NCBI GenBank assembly: GCA_034665605.1
Contig: JAXDJM010000138.1
Coordinates: 1-31,067 of the forward strand
Origin: Actinomycetota bacterium
GTDB taxonomy: Bacteria; Actinomycetota; CADDZG01; WHSQ01
Direction: 5' to 3'
DNA length: 31,067 bases
The translations under genes were made by a program, and so were the position numbers. Positions 11,027 to 21,327 of the stretch are shown here, piece by piece. The notes under the pieces are model-generated. The model saw only the letters and a list, made by a program, of their open reading frames with translations. It did not search any database and was not told the origin of the DNA. Numbering within the stretch: position 1 is the stretch's first letter; each line of letters opens with the position of its first letter.

Positions 11027-11079
11027 CCTTTCCTGTAAGTACCCGTTCGACCGATGTGCGTCACGCCGCGGGAGCGGAC

Positions 11080-11085
11080 TACTAT
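11080..11085 (+). promoter_or_regulatory. Probable -10 element of a leaderless transcript (ACAD pair)
   Basis: TACTAT, 7 nt, then GTG 11093. No SD in between. Confidence 0.6.
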
Positions 11086-11092
11086 CCCCGTC

Positions 11093-12271
11093 GTGGATTT
11101 CAGAGACACCCCCGAAGAAGCCTCGTTCAGGGCGGAACTCCGTTCCTGGATAGAGCAGAACCTTCCTCCCGGCTGGGTGGACAAGGATCCCGCCGCCGGC
11201 CGCATGGACGAGAAGGTCTCTCGCGAGTGGAGCCGCAAGCTCTACGAAGCCGGCTATGCGGGCTTGACGTGGCCCAAGGACTTCGGGGGAGCCGGTGCCC
11301 CGTACAGCTTCCAAGCGATCTTCTTGGAAGAGACGGCCCGTTCGGAGGCGCCCGACCACATCGGGGTGATCGGTCTCGGCATGGCGGGGCCGACGATCAC
11401 CGTCCACGGGACCGATGAGCAGAAGAACCGGTACCTCGGAAAGATCCTGTCCGGCGAAGAGGTGTGGTGCCAGGGATTCTCCGAGCCCGGATCGGGTTCG
11501 GATCTTGCATCCTTGAAGACGAAAGCCGTCGACGACGGTGACAGCTTCGTGGTGAACGGACAGAAGGTGTGGTCGTCGTTCGCTCACATCGCGGATTTCT
11601 GCATCTTGCTCGTGAGGACGGATCCCGCTGCCGACAAGCACAAGGGCATCACGTATCTGTTGGTCGACATGCATTCGCCCGGCGTCGAGGTTCGACCGTT
11701 ACGTCAGATCACCGGGGATCCCGAGTTCAACGAGATCTTCTTCTCGGACGTGCGCGTGCCCAAAGAGAACATCCTGGGTGAGGTCAACGACGGTTGGCGC
11801 GTTGCGATGACGACACTCCTGCACGAGCGCGGGACGCTCGGTTTCGCCTTGACCGCGCGCTTGGAAGTTTTGTTCCGCAAACTCGTGCAACTTGCGAAAG
11901 AGCGATCCAACGGCGAGGGTCCCGCTACCGACGCGCTGATCCGCGATCGGATCGCGCAACATTGGATCGATCTCCAGGCGCTTCGATTCACGAATTACCG
12001 CGCGCTGACGAAGCTGATGCAAACCGGCGTTCCGGGACCTGAGGGCTCCGTGGCGAAGCTGCATTGGTCCGAAACCAATCAACGATTGACGAAGCTTGCG
12101 CTGGAAGTTCAGGGATCTGCCTCTCGTCTCGACGACAACGACGCGGTGTGGAACGGGTTCTGGCAGTACCAGCAGCTGCGCAGCCGCGGCAACACCATCG
12201 AGGCGGGAACGTCGGAGATCCTGCGGAACATCATCGCCGAGCGCGTCCTCGGCCTCCCCAGGAGTCGCTGA
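11093..12271 (+). CDS. Acyl-CoA dehydrogenase, catalytic subunit of a probable alpha2beta2 heterotetramer
   Basis: WCQGFSEPGSGSDLASL, NGQKVWSS, LLHERGTL (Glu position used by heteromeric FadE enzymes) and GNTIEAGTSEILRNIIAERVLGLP. Start moved to GTG 11093 (MDFRDTPEE). Confidence 0.92.
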   Translation: MDFRDTPEEASFRAELRSWIEQNLPPGWVDKDPAAGRMDEKVSREWSRKLYEAGYAGLTWPKDFGGAGAPYSFQAIFLEETARSEAPDHIGVIGLGMAGPTITVHGTDEQKNRYLGKILSGEEVWCQGFSEPGSGSDLASLKTKAVDDGDSFVVNGQKVWSSFAHIADFCILLVRTDPAADKHKGITYLLVDMHSPGVEVRPLRQITGDPEFNEIFFSDVRVPKENILGEVNDGWRVAMTTLLHERGTLGFALTARLEVLFRKLVQLAKERSNGEGPATDALIRDRIAQHWIDLQALRFTNYRALTKLMQTGVPGPEGSVAKLHWSETNQRLTKLALEVQGSASRLDDNDAVWNGFWQYQQLRSRGNTIEAGTSEILRNIIAERVLGLPRSR

Positions 12272-13362
12272 TGGACTTTGCATTCACGTCCGAACAGGAG
12301 ATGCTGCGAGATCAAGCGCGTTCCTATCTTGCCGACCGCTTCCCGATCGAGCGCGTGATCGAGCTCGCCGAGTCGGAAGATGGCTGGGACGAGAAATCGT
12401 GGCGCGAGATCGCCGAGCTCGGTTGGACGGGACTTTCGATCGCGGAAGAGAGCGGCGGCTCCGAGATGGGTTTTCTCGAAGAAGCCGTGATCCTGGAAGA
12501 GATGGGACGCGCACTGTATCCGGGGCCGTACGCGGCCACGGTCGGTTTCTGTATGCCTGCACTGGCGCGATCGGCCGAGTTGTCGAGAGGCATCGCGACC
12601 GGCGAGCTGAGTGCCACGGGTGCGTGGGCAGAAGCCGGGAGCGCCGACGGGTGGGATGGGATCGCGACGTCGGCGTCGGAGCGCGACGGGACATGGTCGG
12701 TGTCCGGTGTCAAGGAATTGGTGCCCGATGCGCATGCCGCTCAGGTCTTCGTCGTCACTGCCGTCGTAAACCGCGGTCCGGGGTTATTCGCGGTTCGTGC
12801 GGGCGATTCGACGCAGGTCGAGATGCTGCGAACGGTCGACCGGACGCGTCGGCTGGCCCGCGTGCGCTTCGAAGATGCCACGGCCGTATCGCTTGCGAGC
12901 GGGGACGAAGCCCGCGCTCTGTGGGATCAGATCGGTATGCGATCGGCAGCCTCACTTGCGCTCGAAGCGGTGGGCATCGCTCAGCGTGCCCTGGAGATGG
13001 CGATCGAGCATGCGAGCTCGCGCGAACAGTTCGGAAAGAAGATCGGGAGCTACGAAGCGGTCTCACACAACGTGTCGAACATCTACGTGGCAACCGAGCT
13101 TGCACGGTCGCTTGCCTACTGGGCCGCGTGGTGTGTCGCCGAGTCGGACGATCAAGCTGCCGTCGCGGTGGCTGCTGCAAAGAGCGCGGCGGGTGAGGCT
13201 GCGGTTCTTGCCTGCGAGAACGCGATCCAGGTTCACGGAGGCATGGGTTTCACGTGGGAGAGCCCGCTGCATCGCTACTACAAGCGTGCGGAGTGGATCT
13301 CCTCTTACGGGGGCTCCGGGGCGAGTCAGCGGAAGGTCATCGCAGCCGCGCTTTTCGACTGA
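12271..13362 (+). CDS. Acyl-CoA dehydrogenase, partner (non-catalytic-type) subunit
   Basis: TGATG-coupled to the upstream ACAD. MDFAFTSEQEML, REQFGKKIGSYEAV and IQVHGGMGFTWE are present. The FSEP motif is degenerate (AWAEAGS) and the protein is shorter, as in ChsE-type partner subunits. Confidence 0.9.
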   Translation: MDFAFTSEQEMLRDQARSYLADRFPIERVIELAESEDGWDEKSWREIAELGWTGLSIAEESGGSEMGFLEEAVILEEMGRALYPGPYAATVGFCMPALARSAELSRGIATGELSATGAWAEAGSADGWDGIATSASERDGTWSVSGVKELVPDAHAAQVFVVTAVVNRGPGLFAVRAGDSTQVEMLRTVDRTRRLARVRFEDATAVSLASGDEARALWDQIGMRSAASLALEAVGIAQRALEMAIEHASSREQFGKKIGSYEAVSHNVSNIYVATELARSLAYWAAWCVAESDDQAAVAVAAAKSAAGEAAVLACENAIQVHGGMGFTWESPLHRYYKRAEWISSYGGSGASQRKVIAAALFD

Positions 13363-13425
13363 AGTCGGGTTTTGTGGGTAGAGATGCGCAGCACCGCGTC
13401 GTATGCCCTCTATATTTGAGGACGG

Positions 13426-14631
13426 ATGGGCCACAGCATCGCCGCTAGGCTGATCGAATCTCTACGGGATCGTTTCCGGGGACCGGCGCCCAAAGAGGCT
13501 GCCGGTCGTTACCGCATCTCTATCGGTCGTACTTCTCGTGACGTCGTCGTCAAGGGTGGCGGGATCCGGGTGGATCGGATCCAGGGGCGACCCGACGTCG
13601 AGATCAGATGTGACCTCGAGACGTGGACGGCGATCGAGGACGGGCATATCTCCGGCATCGAGGCATTCGCCAACGGCCGCTTGAACGTCCGCGGCAGTAT
13701 CGATCGGTCGCTGTGGTTCGAGACTCTGTTCGAGCGCCCGGCAGCTGGCGCCATGCACTACGACCTCGAGCGCGTGTCGTTGGGCAGAACGAAGATCTCG
13801 ACATTGATCGCCGGACCCCCAGACGCGACCCCCCTCGTCTTGTTACATGGCCTGGGCGCGACCAAGTCGTCGTGGCTCCCGATAGTGCCCCAGCTGGCAC
13901 GCGAGCATCGTGTCTATGCGCTCGATCTCCCCGGTTTCGGCTCGTCATCCAAGCCACCGGGTCGCTACAACGCTCCTTGGTTCGCGGAACGTGTCGTGTC
14001 GTTCATGGACAAGCTCGGCATAGAGAACGCCTGCGTCGCCGGCAATTCGATGGGGGGCCGGATCGCGATGGAAGTCGCGATGACTAACCCCGAACGCGTC
14101 GCTGCGATCGCCTGCCTGTGTCCTGCGACCGCGTTCAGCTATCGGCCCGCCGCGTGGCTCGCTCGTCTCGCCCGACCCGAGTTGGGGATCGCCGCCGCTC
14201 GGCTGCCGCGGCAGCGCGTGGTCGCCGGTTTGAAGGAGCTCTTCGCCGACCCGAAAGCGGTGTCGCCGGACTGGTACGACGCCGCGGTGGACGATTTCCT
14301 CACGATCTGGCGTAGTCCCTCGGCGCGCATCGCGTTCTTCGCCTCGTTGCGCTCGATCTATCTCGAAGAACCGTACGGCGAAGCGGGATTCTGGGGCCGG
14401 CTCTCATCGATGAGAACGCCGGCTCTCTATCTGTATGGGCGCAAGGACCATCTCATCACTCCGAGGTTCGGTCCGAAGGTCGCGGCCGCGTTGCCTTCCG
14501 CACGCGTGATCGTCTGGGACGACTGCGGTCATGTGCCTCAGATAGAGCATCCAGATCGCACCGTCGACGAGATGCTTGGGTTCTTTGCATTCGCCCGTGG
14601 CGGGCTCAAGGCCGACGCCGCGGCGATCTAG
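13426..14631 (+). CDS. SCP2 lipid-binding domain fused to an alpha/beta hydrolase
   Basis: The N-terminal ~105 aa end in GIEAFANGRLNVRGSI (SCP2 pattern). The hydrolase has HGLG, GNSMGG (nucleophile), GRKD and CGHVPQIE, giving an intact Ser-Asp-His triad. Confidence 0.85.
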   Translation: MGHSIAARLIESLRDRFRGPAPKEAAGRYRISIGRTSRDVVVKGGGIRVDRIQGRPDVEIRCDLETWTAIEDGHISGIEAFANGRLNVRGSIDRSLWFETLFERPAAGAMHYDLERVSLGRTKISTLIAGPPDATPLVLLHGLGATKSSWLPIVPQLAREHRVYALDLPGFGSSSKPPGRYNAPWFAERVVSFMDKLGIENACVAGNSMGGRIAMEVAMTNPERVAAIACLCPATAFSYRPAAWLARLARPELGIAAARLPRQRVVAGLKELFADPKAVSPDWYDAAVDDFLTIWRSPSARIAFFASLRSIYLEEPYGEAGFWGRLSSMRTPALYLYGRKDHLITPRFGPKVAAALPSARVIVWDDCGHVPQIEHPDRTVDEMLGFFAFARGGLKADAAAI

Positions 14632-15071
14632 CTTTCTGGTTCCGACTGGCTGGGTGTCGGCGTCGTCGCGGGCAGCGCGGACAGAACGATCACAGCTACG
14701 GGTACCGCGATCTCGAGGGCCAGAGTCTCGAGGCTCAGGAGGTTCTGCCCCGTGGACAACGTTCCCCGGTTCATCAGGTGATAGAGAAAGTGCGGAAGCG
14801 CGAAGAACAGCCACGACACGCACGCGACGATCCGCAATCGGCGTTCGGCCACCCAGATGGATATCGCAAACAACGCGCCGAACGCGATGAAGAAGTAAGC
14901 GACGTCTCTGATGAGGTGCTCGTCGTAGACGCTCGAGGCTTGCACCCAGCCTGTGCCGAGCCCGGGGAAATGCAGGTACCAGCCCTTGGGGTCGACGGCC
15001 GCCCAGATGCCCGTGAACAGTTGCGAGAAAGCGAGGAACAACAAACCGATCCTCGTCAGTAGCTCTTTCAT
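14628..15071 (-). CDS. Hypothetical membrane protein (about 4 TM)
   Basis: ATGA-coupled to the upstream ACAD. Four hydrophobic segments and WYLHFPG...YDEHLIRDV, which I recall from conserved actinobacterial hypothetical proteins. Confidence 0.7.
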   Translation of the reverse strand: MKELLTRIGLLFLAFSQLFTGIWAAVDPKGWYLHFPGLGTGWVQASSVYDEHLIRDVAYFFIAFGALFAISIWVAERRLRIVACVSWLFFALPHFLYHLMNRGTLSTGQNLLSLETLALEIAVPVAVIVLSALPATTPTPSQSEPES

Positions 15072-16207
15072 CGAAGACCCAGCTCTCGGGCAATAACTCG
15101 TTGATGGATCTCCTGGGTGCCTTCGACGATCGCGAAATACCGAGCATCTCTGTAGTAACGCTCGATCGGGTATTCGCGCATGTATCCGTAGCCGCCGAAG
15201 ACACGTATCGCCTTGTCCGTGATGTCGATCACCGCCTCGCCGGCCAGTAGCTTCGCTATCGAAGTCTCGATGACCGGAGACTTGTCTTCGTCGAACATCC
15301 AGGCTGCTCTGTGCACGGCCAGCCGAGCGGCATCGAGCGTCGCGCGCGCCTTGGCAAGACGAAACGAAACTCCTTGATAGCTCGATATCGCGCTGCCGAA
15401 CGCGCTTCGATCGCGCGCGTAGGCGACGGCACCGTCGAGAGCCGAGCGCGCGATACCGAGCGCACCGCCCGAAACGATCACACGTCCGACATTGAGCGTT
15501 TGCATGACTTTCTTGAAAGCGCCACGCTCGCCGCCGAGGCACGCATCGTCCGGCACGAACACGTCGTCCAAGGCGACCTCGCCGATCTCCGAGGACAGGT
15601 TGCCCATCTTCTGGATCCGGGTTACCTCGACGCTCTCCGACGGCAGGTCGACGACGAACAACCCCATCCCGTCGATACCGGCACCAGGGTCGGTGTACGC
15701 GACCACGATCACGAAGTCGGCGATCGGGGCATTCGTGATGAAGGTCTTTCGACCGGAAAGGATCCAGCCGCCATCACCTTTGACGGCTTTGCATTGGATG
15801 CCGCGCACGTCCGATCCCGCGTTCGGCTCGGTCAAGCCAAACGCGCTCACCTTGTCGCCGACGAGTGCGGGCTTCAGGTACTCGTGCTTCTGCTCGTCGG
15901 ACCCGAACGCGTAGATCGGGAACGTTCCGAGATGTGAAGAAACCGACAGGGCGGCCGCTATGCCGGAGCAGACCGCTGCGAACTCCTCTCTGAGGATCGC
16001 TTCGGCGAGCACGCCGGCGCCGGAGCCACCCAGCTCTTCTGGGTATCGAACGCCGAGGAATCCTGCCCGCCCCGCCGTGTTGAAGATCTCGCGAGGCGTG
16101 CGCTCGGTTCGTTCTGCCTCATCGACCAGCGGTGCGATCTCGCGCGCGGCGAAGTCTCGTGCCGCGGAGCGGAACATCTCGAGGTCCTCGCCGAGGTCGA
16201 AGTCCAT
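15068..16207 (-). CDS. Acyl-CoA dehydrogenase (conventional homotetrameric type)
   Basis: AFGLTEPNAGSD, GRKTFITNA, FGGYGYMREYPIERYYRDA and IVEGTQEIH. Start ATG 16207 (MDFDLGED). Confidence 0.92.
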   Translation of the reverse strand: MDFDLGEDLEMFRSAARDFAAREIAPLVDEAERTERTPREIFNTAGRAGFLGVRYPEELGGSGAGVLAEAILREEFAAVCSGIAAALSVSSHLGTFPIYAFGSDEQKHEYLKPALVGDKVSAFGLTEPNAGSDVRGIQCKAVKGDGGWILSGRKTFITNAPIADFVIVVAYTDPGAGIDGMGLFVVDLPSESVEVTRIQKMGNLSSEIGEVALDDVFVPDDACLGGERGAFKKVMQTLNVGRVIVSGGALGIARSALDGAVAYARDRSAFGSAISSYQGVSFRLAKARATLDAARLAVHRAAWMFDEDKSPVIETSIAKLLAGEAVIDITDKAIRVFGGYGYMREYPIERYYRDARYFAIVEGTQEIHQRVIARELGLR

Positions 16208-16214
16208 GTTGCGG

Positions 16215-16220
16215 AGGATA
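16215..16220 (-). promoter_or_regulatory. Probable -10 element of a leaderless transcript (third ACAD)
   Basis: Minus-strand TATCCT, 7 nt, then ATG 16207. It lies inside the 25-bp gap between divergent genes. Confidence 0.55.
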
Positions 16221-16232
16221 GAAGATAGGGAC

Positions 16233-17081
16233 ATGACGATCGCCGAGAGGTTCTTTGCAGACCGCTCAGAGCGGGGGAAGTTGCGGTTCACCGGCCCCCA
16301 GAGAGCCTGGTTCTTGCACCAGATCCTGACCCAGTCGTTCGAGGACATTCAGCCCGGAGAAGAACGCGATGCCGCGCTACTGACGCCACACGGACGCATG
16401 ATCGGGTACCTAGAAGCTTGCGCCACCGACGAGGCCATCCTGTGTCACTTCGAGTCGTCGCTCATCGACACGCTCCCGGACGCGATCCGCAAGTACGTGC
16501 TCGCCACCGACATTCGTATCGATGACGTGACGGACGAGATGGGGCTGCTGCTCGTTGGCGGATCGAGCTGGCGCGCCGCAGAAGAGGAAGTCGACGGCGT
16601 TCACGTTCTTCAACCCACGCGTTCGGTCGGTGCAGATGCCGCCTATGTCTGGACCCAAAGAGATGAGATCGAGGGCCTCATCGACCGCCTTCAGAAGCGA
16701 GGTTTCGAACGAGCCTCGGAAAGCGATCTCGAGGCGAGTCGGGTGGCCGCCGGTGTTGCCCGTTGGGGATTCGACATGGACGAGAAAACGATCCCCCAAG
16801 AAGCGGGTATCGACGAATGGGCGATCCACTACTCAAAAGGTTGTTACGTCGGACAAGAGGCGATGTCGAAGATCCATTTCCGCGGCAAGCCGAATCGCAG
16901 GCTCGCGCGCGTGGAAGCAGACTCCGAGTTGCAACGAGGGGCAGAGGTCTTGATCGAAGGAAAGAAGATCGGCTCGGTGACTTCGGTCGCCGGCACGAGC
17001 GGGCTCGCGATCGTTCGGCACGACATCGAAGCAGGGGTGACCGTGGAGATCGACCACACCCGCGCTCGGGTGGTTGCCTGA
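16233..17081 (+). CDS. ygfZ: YgfZ/GcvT-family folate-binding protein
   Basis: Signature KGCYVGQE, plus LLTPHGRM and the N-terminal DRSERGKLRFTG. Start ATG 16233. Confidence 0.9.
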   Translation: MTIAERFFADRSERGKLRFTGPQRAWFLHQILTQSFEDIQPGEERDAALLTPHGRMIGYLEACATDEAILCHFESSLIDTLPDAIRKYVLATDIRIDDVTDEMGLLLVGGSSWRAAEEEVDGVHVLQPTRSVGADAAYVWTQRDEIEGLIDRLQKRGFERASESDLEASRVAAGVARWGFDMDEKTIPQEAGIDEWAIHYSKGCYVGQEAMSKIHFRGKPNRRLARVEADSELQRGAEVLIEGKKIGSVTSVAGTSGLAIVRHDIEAGVTVEIDHTRARVVA

Positions 17082-17084
17082 TCG

Positions 17085-17684
17085 ATGGCGCACCACTACG
17101 AGGGGGACGATCTGATCGTCAGGAAGATCGAGGTCGGCGACCTCGAGAACAACACCTACATCATCGAATGTCCCGAGACTCACGACGCGTTCATCGTGGA
17201 CGGCTCATTCGAAGCGAAGAAGATCGTCGAGGCAAGCAATGGCGCGAACATCGTTGCGATTCTTCAAACGCACGGCCACTACGACCACGTCCAGGCTCTT
17301 GCCGCTTTGAAAGAGAACTTCGACGTGCCCGTGCTCGCCCACGATGGAGACGAATATCCGGTCCCTATCGACCGGATCCTGTCGGACGGCGAGCGACTCG
17401 AACTCGGTAAACGGACGGTCACCGTTCTGCACACACCGGGCCACACACCCGGAAGCGTTTGTTTCGTTTCGGGAAGCCATCTCATCTCGGGCGACACCCT
17501 GTTTCCCGGTGGACCCGGTAATACGTGGGGGGACCGCGGGGCATTCGAGCAGATCATCGGATCGATCGAATCGAAGTTGTTCGTTTTGGACGATGCGACG
17601 GCCGTTTACCCCGGACACGGTGACGACACGACGATCGGAAACGAGAAACCACATCTGCAGGAGTGGATCGATCGCGGTTGGTGA
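17085..17684 (+). CDS. MBL-fold metallo-hydrolase (glyoxalase II-like)
   Basis: THGHYDH, HTPGHTPGS, SGDTLF and YPGHG metal-binding motifs. Confidence 0.9.
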   Translation: MAHHYEGDDLIVRKIEVGDLENNTYIIECPETHDAFIVDGSFEAKKIVEASNGANIVAILQTHGHYDHVQALAALKENFDVPVLAHDGDEYPVPIDRILSDGERLELGKRTVTVLHTPGHTPGSVCFVSGSHLISGDTLFPGGPGNTWGDRGAFEQIIGSIESKLFVLDDATAVYPGHGDDTTIGNEKPHLQEWIDRGW

Positions 17685-18354
17685 CATCGATCTCGAACCG
17701 TTTCTCGCGGCTCGCGCTCGGGAAGCCATCGGGTTCATGCCGGAAGAAGAAGGCATCGCGTTGTTCCGCGCGGCGTGCTCGGCGGGGGCCGTTGGCGGCC
17801 CTCTCTTGGAGATCGGGACATTCTGTGGGAAGTCGGCGATCTATCTAGGTGCCGCAGCGCGCGTGGCGCGCACTGTCTTGTTCACCATCGATCACCACCG
17901 CGGGTCGGAAGAACATCAGCCCGGCGAGGGTTATCACGACGAGAGATTGGAAGACGAGAAGGGTCGCATCGACACCTTGCCGGAATTTCGCAGGACGATC
18001 GACGGCGCGGGCCTGTGGGACGTGGTGATCGCGGTCGTCGGCGAATCTGCATCTGTGGCTCAACGATGGGCGATTCCACTCGCGATGGTGTTCGTGGACG
18101 GTGGTCACTCACGCGAGGCGGCCCACACGGACTTCACCTCGTGGGCCCCTCACATCGCGCCCGGTGGGCTGCTGGTGATCCACGACGTCTTCCCCGACCC
18201 GGATGACGGTGGCCGTCCCCCGTTCGAGATCTACGAACGGGCACTCGACTCTGACCGTTTCACTGAGATCAACTCTTGCGGGAGCTTGCGCGTGCTGCGC
18301 AAGCACGCTCCGCTAGCGCGGGCCGAACAGCGACAAGGTGACACCTTCGGATAG
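17620..18354 (+). CDS. meT1: Class I SAM methyltransferase, homologue of the MMP 1-O-methyltransferase MeT1; start uncertain (GTG 17620, ATG 17593 or ATG 17737)
   Basis: GFMP.EEG, LEIGTFCGKS, TIDHHRGSEEHQPG..YHD, DTLPEFRRT, FVDGGHS and IHDVFPDPDDGG.PP match mycobacterial MeT1 as recalled. It lies next to mmpH- and manT-like genes. Confidence 0.78.
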   Translation: MTTRRSETRNHICRSGSIAVGDIDLEPFLAARAREAIGFMPEEEGIALFRAACSAGAVGGPLLEIGTFCGKSAIYLGAAARVARTVLFTIDHHRGSEEHQPGEGYHDERLEDEKGRIDTLPEFRRTIDGAGLWDVVIAVVGESASVAQRWAIPLAMVFVDGGHSREAAHTDFTSWAPHIAPGGLLVIHDVFPDPDDGGRPPFEIYERALDSDRFTEINSCGSLRVLRKHAPLARAEQRQGDTFG

Positions 18355-19311
18355 GGCATCGCACGCAAGTAAGGCGGCTCCCGCCGTCCACGCCGTCTTC
18401 TCACGCGGCCACACCGTTCCGTCGGGCCACGTCGCGCCCGTCCAGTACGCGCCTTCGCAGCGAAGGTGCTGAGCCCACGCGAAGAGTTCGGAGGCTCGGT
18501 CATGGGCACCCAACGCCATCAGGCATATGACGAGCTCGAAAGTCTCCGCGGCCGTGACCCAAGGGCGGTCGGCTACGCAGCGGCAACCGCGACCCGCGAT
18601 CACGAATTCGTTCCACCTATGTGCAAGGCGCTGGGTGGCCCCGTCTGCGTCCAACACGCCGCTCAGGATCGGGTAGTACCAGTCCATAGCAAAACGGTGC
18701 TTGTCGACGAAGCCAACCTCGCCCGCGACCGCGGCCACGAGTCGTCTCCGAGCCAGGTGCCATGAAGGTCGTTCGTGTCCGAGGATGTCGGCGATCTGAA
18801 GGGCCGAGGCAAGGCTGTGTGCGACACACGCGCATGAAGTCAACAGTGCTTCGGAAACGACCCGGCCGCGGAGATCCTTGGCCCACCAGACCCTCCCGTC
18901 CGGAACCTGAAGCCCGAGGACGAACCTCATCGCTCGCTCCACGACGGGCCACATCTCTTCGAGAAAGGCCCGATCGGAAGTCATGAGCCAGTGATGGAGA
19001 ACGCCCGTCGCGGCATAAGCGCAGAAATTCGTATCGGCCCCGGCATCGTGAGGAACGCCGCCCCGGTATTCGATGGCCCATGAACCATCGGTTCGCTGGG
19101 AGCTCATCAACCAGCCATAGGCGTTCGCTGCGTCCGAGTGATGGCCCACGGCGTCGAGACCCATCGCCGCTTCCACGTGATTCCACGGATCGGCGGGGGC
19201 TCCCGGCCACCACGCTATGCAACCGTCGCTTCGTTGTGCTTCGAGTATGGATTGCGCGGTGTGACGCGCGTCCGATGTTGTCAGGGCCGGAGCTACTTCA
19301 GGCGCGCGCAT
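18313..19311 (-). CDS. mmpH: (alpha/alpha)6-barrel protein, homologue of the MMP alpha-endomannosidase MmpH (often auto-annotated prenyltransferase)
   Basis: DPWNHVEAAM, NFCAYAATGVLHH, ALLTSCA, MDWYYPILSG, RCVADRPWVTAAET.ELV and GAYWTG...WP.EKTAWT match recalled MmpH-family motifs. Cluster context agrees. Confidence 0.72.
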   Translation of the reverse strand: MRAPEVAPALTTSDARHTAQSILEAQRSDGCIAWWPGAPADPWNHVEAAMGLDAVGHHSDAANAYGWLMSSQRTDGSWAIEYRGGVPHDAGADTNFCAYAATGVLHHWLMTSDRAFLEEMWPVVERAMRFVLGLQVPDGRVWWAKDLRGRVVSEALLTSCACVAHSLASALQIADILGHERPSWHLARRRLVAAVAGEVGFVDKHRFAMDWYYPILSGVLDADGATQRLAHRWNEFVIAGRGCRCVADRPWVTAAETFELVICLMALGAHDRASELFAWAQHLRCEGAYWTGATWPDGTVWPREKTAWTAGAALLACDALSEGVTLSLFGPR

Positions 19312-20026
19312 CCGACATCCTTCTGAATGATCGTTTGCGCGCGTAGAGAACGACGCTCTTACCCATCACTGGATCGAGAGCACGCTCCAGCGCGCGCGTC
19401 GCCAGCGGCCGGCGGGTGAGATCCCAAACCAAAAAGCCGTGATACATGCGGACCGGAAGGATGTCGTCCTTGCGGGGACCGACCGCGGATTTGAGCCACC
19501 AGAAAGGCGAGTGCAGCGCGTGGGCGAAATGGCGGTCGAATGCATCGAGCCCTGCTTCACCGAGGCCGGCACGAAGCGTTGACTCTTTGTAGATGCGAAC
19601 GTGACCCCCTTCGTTCTGGTGATATTCGTCCGAGAGAGCCCAGCACACCCGTTCGGGCCAGTACCGCGGCACCGTCACGGCCACGATGCCTTCGGGCGCA
19701 AGCACGCGCGCGATCTCCCGCATCACCGCCTGATCATTCGGGATGTGCTCGAGAACTTCAGAAACGATGATGCGGTCGAACGTGCCGTCGGCAAACGGAA
19801 GCTGCAGAGCGTCGGCTCGAAGGGCTCCGGCATTGCCGCCTTCCTCTTCGGCCACCGCGGCAAGCATCACTGCCGTGTCCTTTAGAACGACATCGTCGAG
19901 ATCCATGGCGACAACCTGCGCCCCTCGCCGCATCGCTTCGAAGGAGTGGCGCCCACCCCCGCATCCGAGGTCGAGTAAATGCATCCCTGGTTCGACGGCA
20001 AGTCGCTCGTAGTCGACGGTCAACAT
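19298..20026 (-). CDS. Class I SAM methyltransferase, homologue of the putative MMP 3-O-methyltransferase
   Basis: MLTVDYERL, LDLGCGGGRHSFEA, SEVLEHIP, VTVPRYWPERVCWALSDEYH..EGGHVRIY and HALHSPFWWLK. It sits between manT-like and mmpH-like genes. Confidence 0.78.
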   Translation of the reverse strand: MLTVDYERLAVEPGMHLLDLGCGGGRHSFEAMRRGAQVVAMDLDDVVLKDTAVMLAAVAEEEGGNAGALRADALQLPFADGTFDRIIVSEVLEHIPNDQAVMREIARVLAPEGIVAVTVPRYWPERVCWALSDEYHQNEGGHVRIYKESTLRAGLGEAGLDAFDRHFAHALHSPFWWLKSAVGPRKDDILPVRMYHGFLVWDLTRRPLATRALERALDPVMGKSVVLYARKRSFRRMSDARA

Positions 20027-21252
20027 GGGGCCATCGCCTTGCGGTATTCGGCCACGGTCAACTCCGCGGTGTTACGCCACGTGAAGTGGTCGAGGACACG
20101 CTGTCTTGCGCGTTCCCCGATCGATCGGCGGAGCTCTGGGTCGTCGAGCAGACTTTTTATCGCCGTTGCAAGTGCGCCCGCGTCGGCGGGGGGCACGAGA
20201 ATGCCGGTCCGTTCGGTGCCGATCACTTCCGGAAGCGCGCCTGCCGTCGTTGCGACGACCGGAACCGCGCACGCCATCGCTTCCACCGCCGGCAAGGAGA
20301 ATCCTTCGTAAAGCGAAGGAACGACGGCCACCTCTGAAGTGGCGTACAACTCGACTAGCTCGAGACGATCGATCCCCGTACGGAACGTCACATGACGCTC
20401 CATCCCGTAGCGCTCGAGCGCCGTGGTGATTCGGGAGCCCGGGGGCGCGCCGACCACGATCAAGTGAGCGTCCGTCTCGGTCCTCAGCTTCGCGAGCGCC
20501 TCGATCAAGTGTGGGAGGCCCTTAAGGGGCACGTCCGCACTCGCGGTGGTCACGATCCGCCCCGCAACTTTGCCGACTTCGGGGAGCGGCCTGAATAGAT
20601 CGGTGTCGACGCCGTTCGGAACCACCGCGACGTTGTTGTCGATGAGCTTCATCTCGGCCTCGACATCGGATGCCGCGACCGTCGACGGCGAGATGATCGG
20701 GAGGCGACGCGCTACGCGTGCCTGCATCCGCGTGAACGCGTACCACCGACGGATCGCCATCCGCCTCGTGACGCCGGCCGCTTGCAACTCGAGCCGGCGG
20801 TCGATCTGGATGGGGTGATGGATCGTCGCGACGACGGGCAGTCCGGTGCGGGCGATCCGCAGCAATCCGTACCCGAGGCACTGGTTGTCGTGAACCACGT
20901 CGAAGTCTGCTCTTCTCTCGGCGAGCATCCGGGCGGCTCGCAGGCTGAAGGTGAGCGGCTCGGGGAAACCCGCCCCGCACATCGACGCGTACTCGAGGAT
21001 GTCGATCCAATCCTTGAACTCCGATCGAGCCGGCCGCCGGAAGGGGTCATCGGGACGGTAGAGATCGAGGCTGGGGACGCGGGTGAGGCCCACGCCGTCG
21101 ACGAGCTCCGGATACGGCGGCCCCGAGAAGACTTCTACGTGATGGCCGAGCGCGCTCAGCGCAGCGCTGAGGTAACGCACGTAAACTCCCTGACCGCCGG
21201 ATAGCGGGTTGCCTCGGTAGGTGAGTAGCGCCACGCGCAAGGGTTCGGTCAT
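20020..21252 (-). CDS. manT: GT4 glycosyltransferase, homologue of the MMP alpha-1,4-mannosyltransferase ManT
   Basis: GT4 motif PSLYEGFSLPAVEAMA. N-terminal RVALLTYR...GGQGVYVR.LS..L..LGH.VEVFSGPPYP, LTFSLRAAR and VHDNQCLGYG match ManT-type proteins as recalled. Confidence 0.78.
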   Translation of the reverse strand: MTEPLRVALLTYRGNPLSGGQGVYVRYLSAALSALGHHVEVFSGPPYPELVDGVGLTRVPSLDLYRPDDPFRRPARSEFKDWIDILEYASMCGAGFPEPLTFSLRAARMLAERRADFDVVHDNQCLGYGLLRIARTGLPVVATIHHPIQIDRRLELQAAGVTRRMAIRRWYAFTRMQARVARRLPIISPSTVAASDVEAEMKLIDNNVAVVPNGVDTDLFRPLPEVGKVAGRIVTTASADVPLKGLPHLIEALAKLRTETDAHLIVVGAPPGSRITTALERYGMERHVTFRTGIDRLELVELYATSEVAVVPSLYEGFSLPAVEAMACAVPVVATTAGALPEVIGTERTGILVPPADAGALATAIKSLLDDPELRRSIGERARQRVLDHFTWRNTAELTVAEYRKAMAPC

Positions 21253-21260
21253 GACGGGGA

Positions 21261-21266
21261 ACCTTA
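21261..21266 (-). promoter_or_regulatory. Probable -10 element of a leaderless manT-like transcript
   Basis: Minus-strand TAAGGT, 8 nt, then ATG 21252. No SD. Confidence 0.5.
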
Positions 21267-21327
21267 AGGGCCGGGACTCTCACTCCGATCTCGGTGCCTA
21301 GCGTGACCCAAGGCGGACAATGGACGC

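Follow-up and report, generated by a model that had tools for sequence, protein, structure and literature searches.

A four-gene cluster of the methylmannose-polysaccharide type in an uncultured, non-mycobacterial class of Actinomycetota

Gene content and layout of the locus

Methylmannose polysaccharide (MMP) has been regarded as a speciality of nontuberculous mycobacteria and linked to their type I fatty acid synthase (FAS-I), and the mycobacterial MMP cluster and its methyltransferase MeT1 were reportedly the subject of a 2019 study by Ripoll-Rozada. Here, we describe a stretch of 31,067 nucleotides (the window; contig JAXDJM010000138.1 of assembly GCA_034665605.1), which carries, between positions 17620 and 21252, four genes that most probably form an orthologue of that cluster in a metagenome-assembled genome (MAG) from outside the mycobacteria. 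A first-pass annotation, made from the DNA alone, had proposed a four-gene MMP-like cluster in this interval. The open reading frames (ORFs), overlaps, and convergent arrangement that it described are all present, and every motif that it quoted (GGQGVYVR, EVFSGPPYP, GSEEHQPG, HDVFPDP, DPWNHVE, MDWYYP, and RPWVTAAET) is found in the translations. The features are as follows.

20020-21252, minus strand: manT-like gene, 410 aa, homologue of the GT4/GT-B alpha-(1->4)-mannosyltransferase (Pfam GT4; match to PDB 7qsg)
19298-20026, minus strand: pmeT3-like gene, 242 aa, S-adenosylmethionine-dependent methyltransferase of the Methyltransf_11 family (Pfam PF08241, E 1e-21)
18313-19311, minus strand: mmpH-like gene, 332 aa, (alpha/alpha)6-barrel homologue of the MMP endo-alpha-(1->4)-mannosidase (match to PDB 7qsj)
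17620-18354 (start uncertain), plus strand: meT1-like gene, homologue of the Methyltransf_24 1-O-methyltransferase (Pfam; match to PDB 6g7d)
21253-21327, no strand assigned: divergent intergenic region of 75 nt upstream of manT, presumed from gene layout to hold the operon promoter

The manT, meT3, and mmpH genes form an overlapping operon on the minus strand, on which meT1 converges. The overlaps between manT and meT3 (7 nt) and between meT3 and mmpH (14 nt) imply translational coupling, and the converging 3' ends of mmpH and meT1 share 42 nt. This order, manT-meT3-mmpH-meT1, is that of MHAS_04402-04405 in Mycolicibacterium hassiacum, which are its manT, pmeT3, mmpH, and meT1; the other mycobacterial cluster compared is MSMEG_6481-6484 of M. 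smegmatis (Maranha 2023, PMC9883506). The pmeT3-like gene thus occupies the place of MHAS_04403, between manT and mmpH. As mycobacterial proxies we used the loci of one family (code f39) in our phylum-wide sample, which score 619-632 bits against 7qsj; we read them as mycobacterial because of these high scores and because their genomes encode a FAS-I frame of 3,159-3,179 aa. The gene order of these loci is the same as in the window, and the four window proteins are 48-56% identical to their counterparts there (52% for ManT, and 52-55% for the gene in the pMeT3 position). All four frames are open, and across the four proteins 222 of the 225 columns with a conservation of at least 95% in the phylum-wide sample are retained. 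No NCBIfam profile scored above its cut-off for any of the four. In one locus of the phylum sample (L130, G420:C1:449200-459100), meT1 follows mmpH in the same orientation and does not converge on it.

Identity of the four proteins

The identification of three of the proteins, as the first-pass annotation had it, is borne out by comparison with solved structures, where in each case the best match is separated from the next by a very large gap. For the MmpH-like protein, M. hassiacum MmpH (7qsj) is the sole match among all solved structures (E 5e-98). Its AlphaFold2 model (pLDDT 95.6) overlays on 7qsj with a TM score of 0.96 and a root-mean-square deviation of 1.3 Å, so that the structure prediction suggested earlier for this ORF also came out in favour of MmpH. 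After 7qsj, the structural neighbours of the model are unrelated glycoside hydrolases and phosphorylases at E around 1e-8, with terpene cyclases far lower. Residue lists for MmpH and ManT were taken from Maranha et al. 2023 (PMC9883506). The mutation-tested MmpH residues Asp47 and Glu262 are retained in the window (D41 and E256), and the subsite residues Trp49, Asn101, Phe102, Thr163, Met215, Tyr219, Glu265, and Trp315 correspond to W43, N95, F96, T158, M209, Y213, E259, and W308.

The ManT-like protein has M. hassiacum ManT (7qsg) as its best match (E 1.5e-123, 416 bits; the runner-up reaches 112 bits). Window residues G19, H145, K244, E316, G317, F318, L320, and E324 align with ManT Gly15, His142, Lys240, Glu313, Gly314, Phe315, Leu317, and Glu321, and all eight are invariant across 65 aligned homologues; they include the mutation-tested Lys240, Glu313, and Glu321. 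At the GDP-recognition positions, I294 stands at Leu291 and R296 at Asp293, with an aspartate (D295) one residue before. The column of Asp293 holds D or E in 60 of the 65 homologues, and the shifted aspartate was seen only in the genus of the window and in a few other homologues.

The MeT1-like protein matches M. hassiacum MeT1 (6g7d) at E 1.2e-66 over 205 residues (next match, E 0.004), and all 49 of its columns conserved at the level given above are kept. Three starts come into question for its gene: GTG at 17620, ATG at 17593, and a non-canonical ATC at 17686. The GTG is the nearest canonical in-frame start and would overlap the upstream gene, which encodes a metallo-beta-lactamase (MBL)-fold protein, by 65 nt, and the in-frame ATC lies one base past the TGA stop of that gene.

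The pMeT3-like protein has no close relative among solved structures. Three metagenomic proteins (P0137, P0167, and P0250) carry a MeT3-type methyltransferase at the N-terminus fused to MmpH at the C-terminus, and the first of these is 48% identical to the window MeT3 over its full length. Such fusions would tie the putative methyltransferase to the hydrolase, and they may be read-throughs of frameshifts in the assemblies.

Host lineage, distribution, and descent

The host genome is a MAG of 2.09 Mb in 294 contigs, with 84% completeness and 0.16% contamination. Its GTDB class comprises 113 species genomes in four families, and a class this small means that the host belongs neither to Actinomycetes nor to Acidimicrobiia; it is a member of a small uncultured class of Actinomycetota, and the earlier suggestion of a non-mycobacterial host was therefore correct. 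A search for the central FAS-I domain (PF08354) found no match in the 86 genomes of the host family, including the host, and 46 of these are at least 90% complete; the same profile detected FAS-I in Corynebacterium glutamicum and in both mycobacterial genomes tested. The arabinosyltransferase domain of Emb (PF04602) was detected in the C. glutamicum control and was not found in the host MAG. A truncated ORF at a contig end resembles the mannose-1-phosphate guanylyltransferase of the Rv3264c type (NF052502, 225 bits, below the 440-bit cut-off, which is set for full-length proteins).

The cluster recurs, at 73-77% identity and flanked by the same genes, in two other genomes of the host genus; one genus-mate is the public record JBHELU01. 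Conservation of the genes beside it in the window does not reach beyond this genus, and the YgfZ-like and MBL-fold neighbours are 78-79% identical. In the host's own family, mmpH occurs in 43 of 85 genomes; the remaining three families of the class, with 27 genomes, gave no match. These tallies include seven genomes flagged as unpublished (G002, G006, G013, G052, G053, G073, and G087), all of which match, and the public-only family count is 36 of 78; some identity figures for loci and neighbours rest partly on G002 and G013, and the tree described below uses no unpublished genome. MmpH matches in five family genomes (G012, G085, G086, G087, and G088) each contain one in-frame TGA or TAG, which may reflect pseudogenes, sequencing errors, or alignment run-over.

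Beyond the class, the cluster is widespread. A pattern scan of species-representative genomes gave at least 590 relatives among the first 600 candidates, the best 80 of which come mostly from Acidimicrobiia MAGs, with Actinomadura in addition, and all four genes stand in the same layout in 70 of 86 loci, most of the others being cut by contig ends. In the evenly drawn phylum sample, 65 of 401 genomes (41 of 249 genera) have an MmpH homologue. Among 40 sampled loci from at least 16 families, manT, meT3, and mmpH are colinear in every one, and meT1 lies within the examined stretch in 34. Protein databases hold at least 1,864 MmpH clusters at 90% identity among the matches listed, and 242 at 50% identity with E <= 1e-30. 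The rarity implied by the first-pass annotation does not hold against these numbers: the window copy is a sound but ordinary example for its phylum, and it offers no new mechanism of its own. What it adds is one more deep, uncultured lineage among the carriers of the cluster, which make up about one in six of the Actinomycetota genomes sampled. In the literature that was searched, no description of the cluster turned up for Acidimicrobiia or for uncultured classes.

It had also been expected that automated annotation would hide the pathway. This is the case at NCBI, where MmpH homologues are labelled 'prenyltransferase', a label that keeps thousands of metagenomic proteins from being seen as parts of a recognisable pathway; some JGI records, on the other hand, already carry the name 'MMP endo-(1,4)-3-O-methyl-alpha-D-mannosidase'. 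A search for MmpH on plasmids returned a single match, a Nonomuraea record of chromosome size, and gave no sign of plasmid carriage. No fifth gene general to the cluster appeared among 80 related loci, where counts of neighbouring genes come from single-linkage clustering of ORFs, blurred by antisense ORFs in GC-rich DNA. In 27 of these loci, from Acidimicrobiia (for example, L074:1973-3454), lnt, encoding an apolipoprotein N-acyltransferase (LNT_N and CN_hydrolase domains), lies directly upstream of manT, which is not so in the window. Acyl-CoA dehydrogenase genes occur at a distance of up to about 4 kb from manT in 20 of the 80 loci, and the window (11054-16348) has them too; such genes are abundant in these genomes, and their proximity may be due to chance.

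To place the cluster, a tree was built from concatenated ManT, MeT3, and MmpH of 54 loci (974 columns, LG+C20, quick search, SH-aLRT support only, unrooted), leaving out one locus with a truncated ManT. The window pairs with its genus-mate (support 100), and both fall in a clade (support 99) that unites all 12 sequences from the host family and one further Actinomycetota MAG. Mycobacterial and Acidimicrobiia sequences form separate clades, and the window clusters with its own family in this tree, of the kind that the first-pass annotation had called for. A split with support 95 places the host-family clade together with mycobacteria, Actinomadura, Streptomyces-sized genomes, and a MAG labelled Bacillota, with all named Acidimicrobiia sequences on the opposite side. 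The labelled families are mostly single clades. In this unrooted tree, read with no species tree alongside, the pattern would fit an old and mainly vertical descent of the cluster, with losses.

Proposed function and alternative explanations

Taken together, we consider the locus an orthologue of the mycobacterial cluster for MMP biosynthesis and recycling, probably passed on vertically within its uncultured family, whose most probable role is to make and recycle a polymer of the MMP type (with a probability of about 0.8), because homology, synteny, the retained catalytic residues, column conservation, fold, phylogeny, the fragment of a donor-supply enzyme, and the MeT3-MmpH fusions all point in this direction. 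By analogy with M. hassiacum and M. smegmatis, from which we infer the donor, linkage, methylation pattern, chain length, and physiological role in the host, ManT would extend alpha-(1->4)-oligomannoside primers with GDP-mannose as donor, the Methyltransf_11 enzyme (pMeT3) would methylate the 3-OH of the added mannoses, and MeT1 would cap the reducing end through 1-O-methylation. MmpH would then make internal cuts in mature chains, and the resulting 4-8-mers would serve as primers for further chains. If primers derive from MmpH in this way, the polymer would be copied partly conservatively and would need a pre-existing chain. Since FAS-I was not found in the family, the role there cannot be the sequestration of FAS-I products proposed for mycobacteria; the likeliest function would be a general buffer for long-chain acyl-CoA or fatty acids, or cold adaptation. 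The finding of no FAS-I domain in 86 family genomes weakens a FAS-I-centred view of the role of MMP.

Compared with the mycobacterial cluster, the window shares gene order, folds, the level of identity in each protein, MmpH Asp47 and Glu262, and ManT Lys240, Glu313, and Glu321. It differs in that its host belongs to another class, has a small genome, and has neither FAS-I nor Emb among the domains found, and also in an Asn at MmpH position Asp50, in the one-residue shift of the guanine-contact Asp of ManT, and in a meT1 that overlaps mmpH by 42 nt and lacks a canonical start at the site used by its homologues. The cluster has been described in many mycobacteria, and homologues were noted in Corynebacterium, Rhodococcus, Streptomyces, and Nocardia (PMC9883506). 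These, too, are actinobacteria outside the mycobacteria, and their ManT and MmpH homologues show about 50% identity, but they are cultured Actinomycetes, whereas the class of the window is known only from MAGs. In the cluster-bearing Streptomyces-sized genome that was tested, the FAS-I domain was not found. Streptomyces griseus is reported to make an acetylated MMP (PMC9883506), whereas no acetyltransferase is linked to the window cluster. The clusters of Acidimicrobiia MAGs have an identical four-gene architecture at 44-60% identity and also belong to uncultured lineages, yet they fall into a separate tree clade and many have lnt upstream of manT, unlike the window. Mycobacteria also have the 6-O-methylglucose lipopolysaccharide (MGLP), the second known polysaccharide of the cytoplasm that is polymethylated and has been proposed to bind acyl chains (PMC9883506); it differs from MMP in its unrelated gene set, glucose backbone, and acyl decorations.

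Several points weigh against the MMP reading. In the host and its class, MMP is known from genes alone, with no product observed, and the role of pMeT3 as a 3-O-methyltransferase is putative in all organisms. The position of MmpH Asp50 is occupied by Asn (N44) in the window, and the D50A variant of the M. hassiacum enzyme is nearly inactive (PMC9883506). In ManT, Asp293 was proposed to contact N2 of guanine (Maranha 2023, PMC9883506), and its displacement in the window protein leaves the predicted donor base not secure. Of the catalytic acids of MmpH, which the first-pass annotation had asked to have checked, Asp47 and Glu262 are kept and Asp50 is replaced; in ManT, the catalytic residues are kept and Asp293 is shifted. 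Starts of meT1 homologues map to about 17683-17689, where the window has no ATG, GTG, or TTG. Finally, the absences of FAS-I and of a full manC in the host MAG itself are provisional, given its completeness of 84%.

Some of these points would also suit the main rival reading, a cluster whose enzymes are orthologous and whose product is a chemically different relative of MMP, be it acylated, different in chain length or in its pattern of methylation, or made from some other nucleotide sugar. Identities of only 48-56% to the mycobacterial counterparts, the base-contact Asp of ManT shifted in the genus of the window, the Asn in MmpH, and the acetylated variant reported in S. griseus (PMC9883506) all lend this some weight. 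Yet no acyltransferase or tailoring gene is conserved beside the cluster, either in the window or in the 80 related loci, the listed sugar-site residues of MmpH and mannosyl-contact residues of ManT are all kept, and most of the family (140 of 201 full-length homologues) has Asn in place of Asp50, so that this residue is no peculiarity of the host; we therefore regard a different product as unlikely.

An artefact, with the contig mis-binned or the genes decaying, so that either the host assignment or the function would be spurious, could be suspected from the fragmented state of the MAG (294 contigs, 84% complete) and from the odd start region of meT1. Against this stand the contamination estimate of 0.16%, the two congeneric genomes with the same cluster at 73-77% identity and the same flanks, the position of the window within its own family in the cluster tree, and the four open frames with 222 of 225 conserved columns kept, which together make such an error very improbable. 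We give almost no credence to the idea behind the NCBI label, that the barrel protein transfers prenyl groups or acts like a terpene cyclase and that the locus modifies an isoprenoid and not a glycan. A Pfam match to SQHop_cyclase_N does exist, but at E 8e-4 it is weak and below the cut-off, and it contrasts with the 7qsj match (E 5e-98, TM 0.96), with the ranking of glycoside hydrolases and phosphorylases far ahead of terpene cyclases among the next structural neighbours, and with the conserved acid and base residues of a glycosidase.

An orthologous MMP cluster is thus the reading we retain, and it can be extended to the phylum as a whole. The pathway may be an ancestral, vertically inherited trait of Actinomycetota, with a FAS-I-independent role where FAS-I is absent (acyl-chain buffering or cold adaptation) and with Asp47 as the acid of MmpH. 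This extended proposal is tentative, and we would put it a little short of even chances; it is suggested because the tree splits the Actinomycetes group, the host's class, and Acidimicrobiia, and because genera keep or lose the cluster whole.

The natural variation of Asp50 to Asn bears on an open point of MmpH catalysis, as the work on M. hassiacum left the choice between Asp47 and Asp50 as the acid undecided (PMC9883506). Across the 201 full-length homologues, the Asp50 position holds Asp in 50, and the Asp47 position holds Asp in 178. Judging from this alignment, Asp50 is not family-defining, and the occurrence of Asn in its place in most homologues argues for Asp47 as the catalytic acid. 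Nine of the 201 homologues have Asn at both candidate positions (motif TNPWNHVEA) and thus have neither Asp47 nor Asp50. The same MmpH protein is present in JGI samples 3300048987 and 3300044717. On JGI contigs with an identical MmpH (L087 and L088), the public gene call (P0005, 287 aa) begins 45 codons downstream of the ATG at 19311 and drops the conserved DPWNHVE, including the catalytic Asp; with the longer frame, the alignment to MmpH begins at residue 4.

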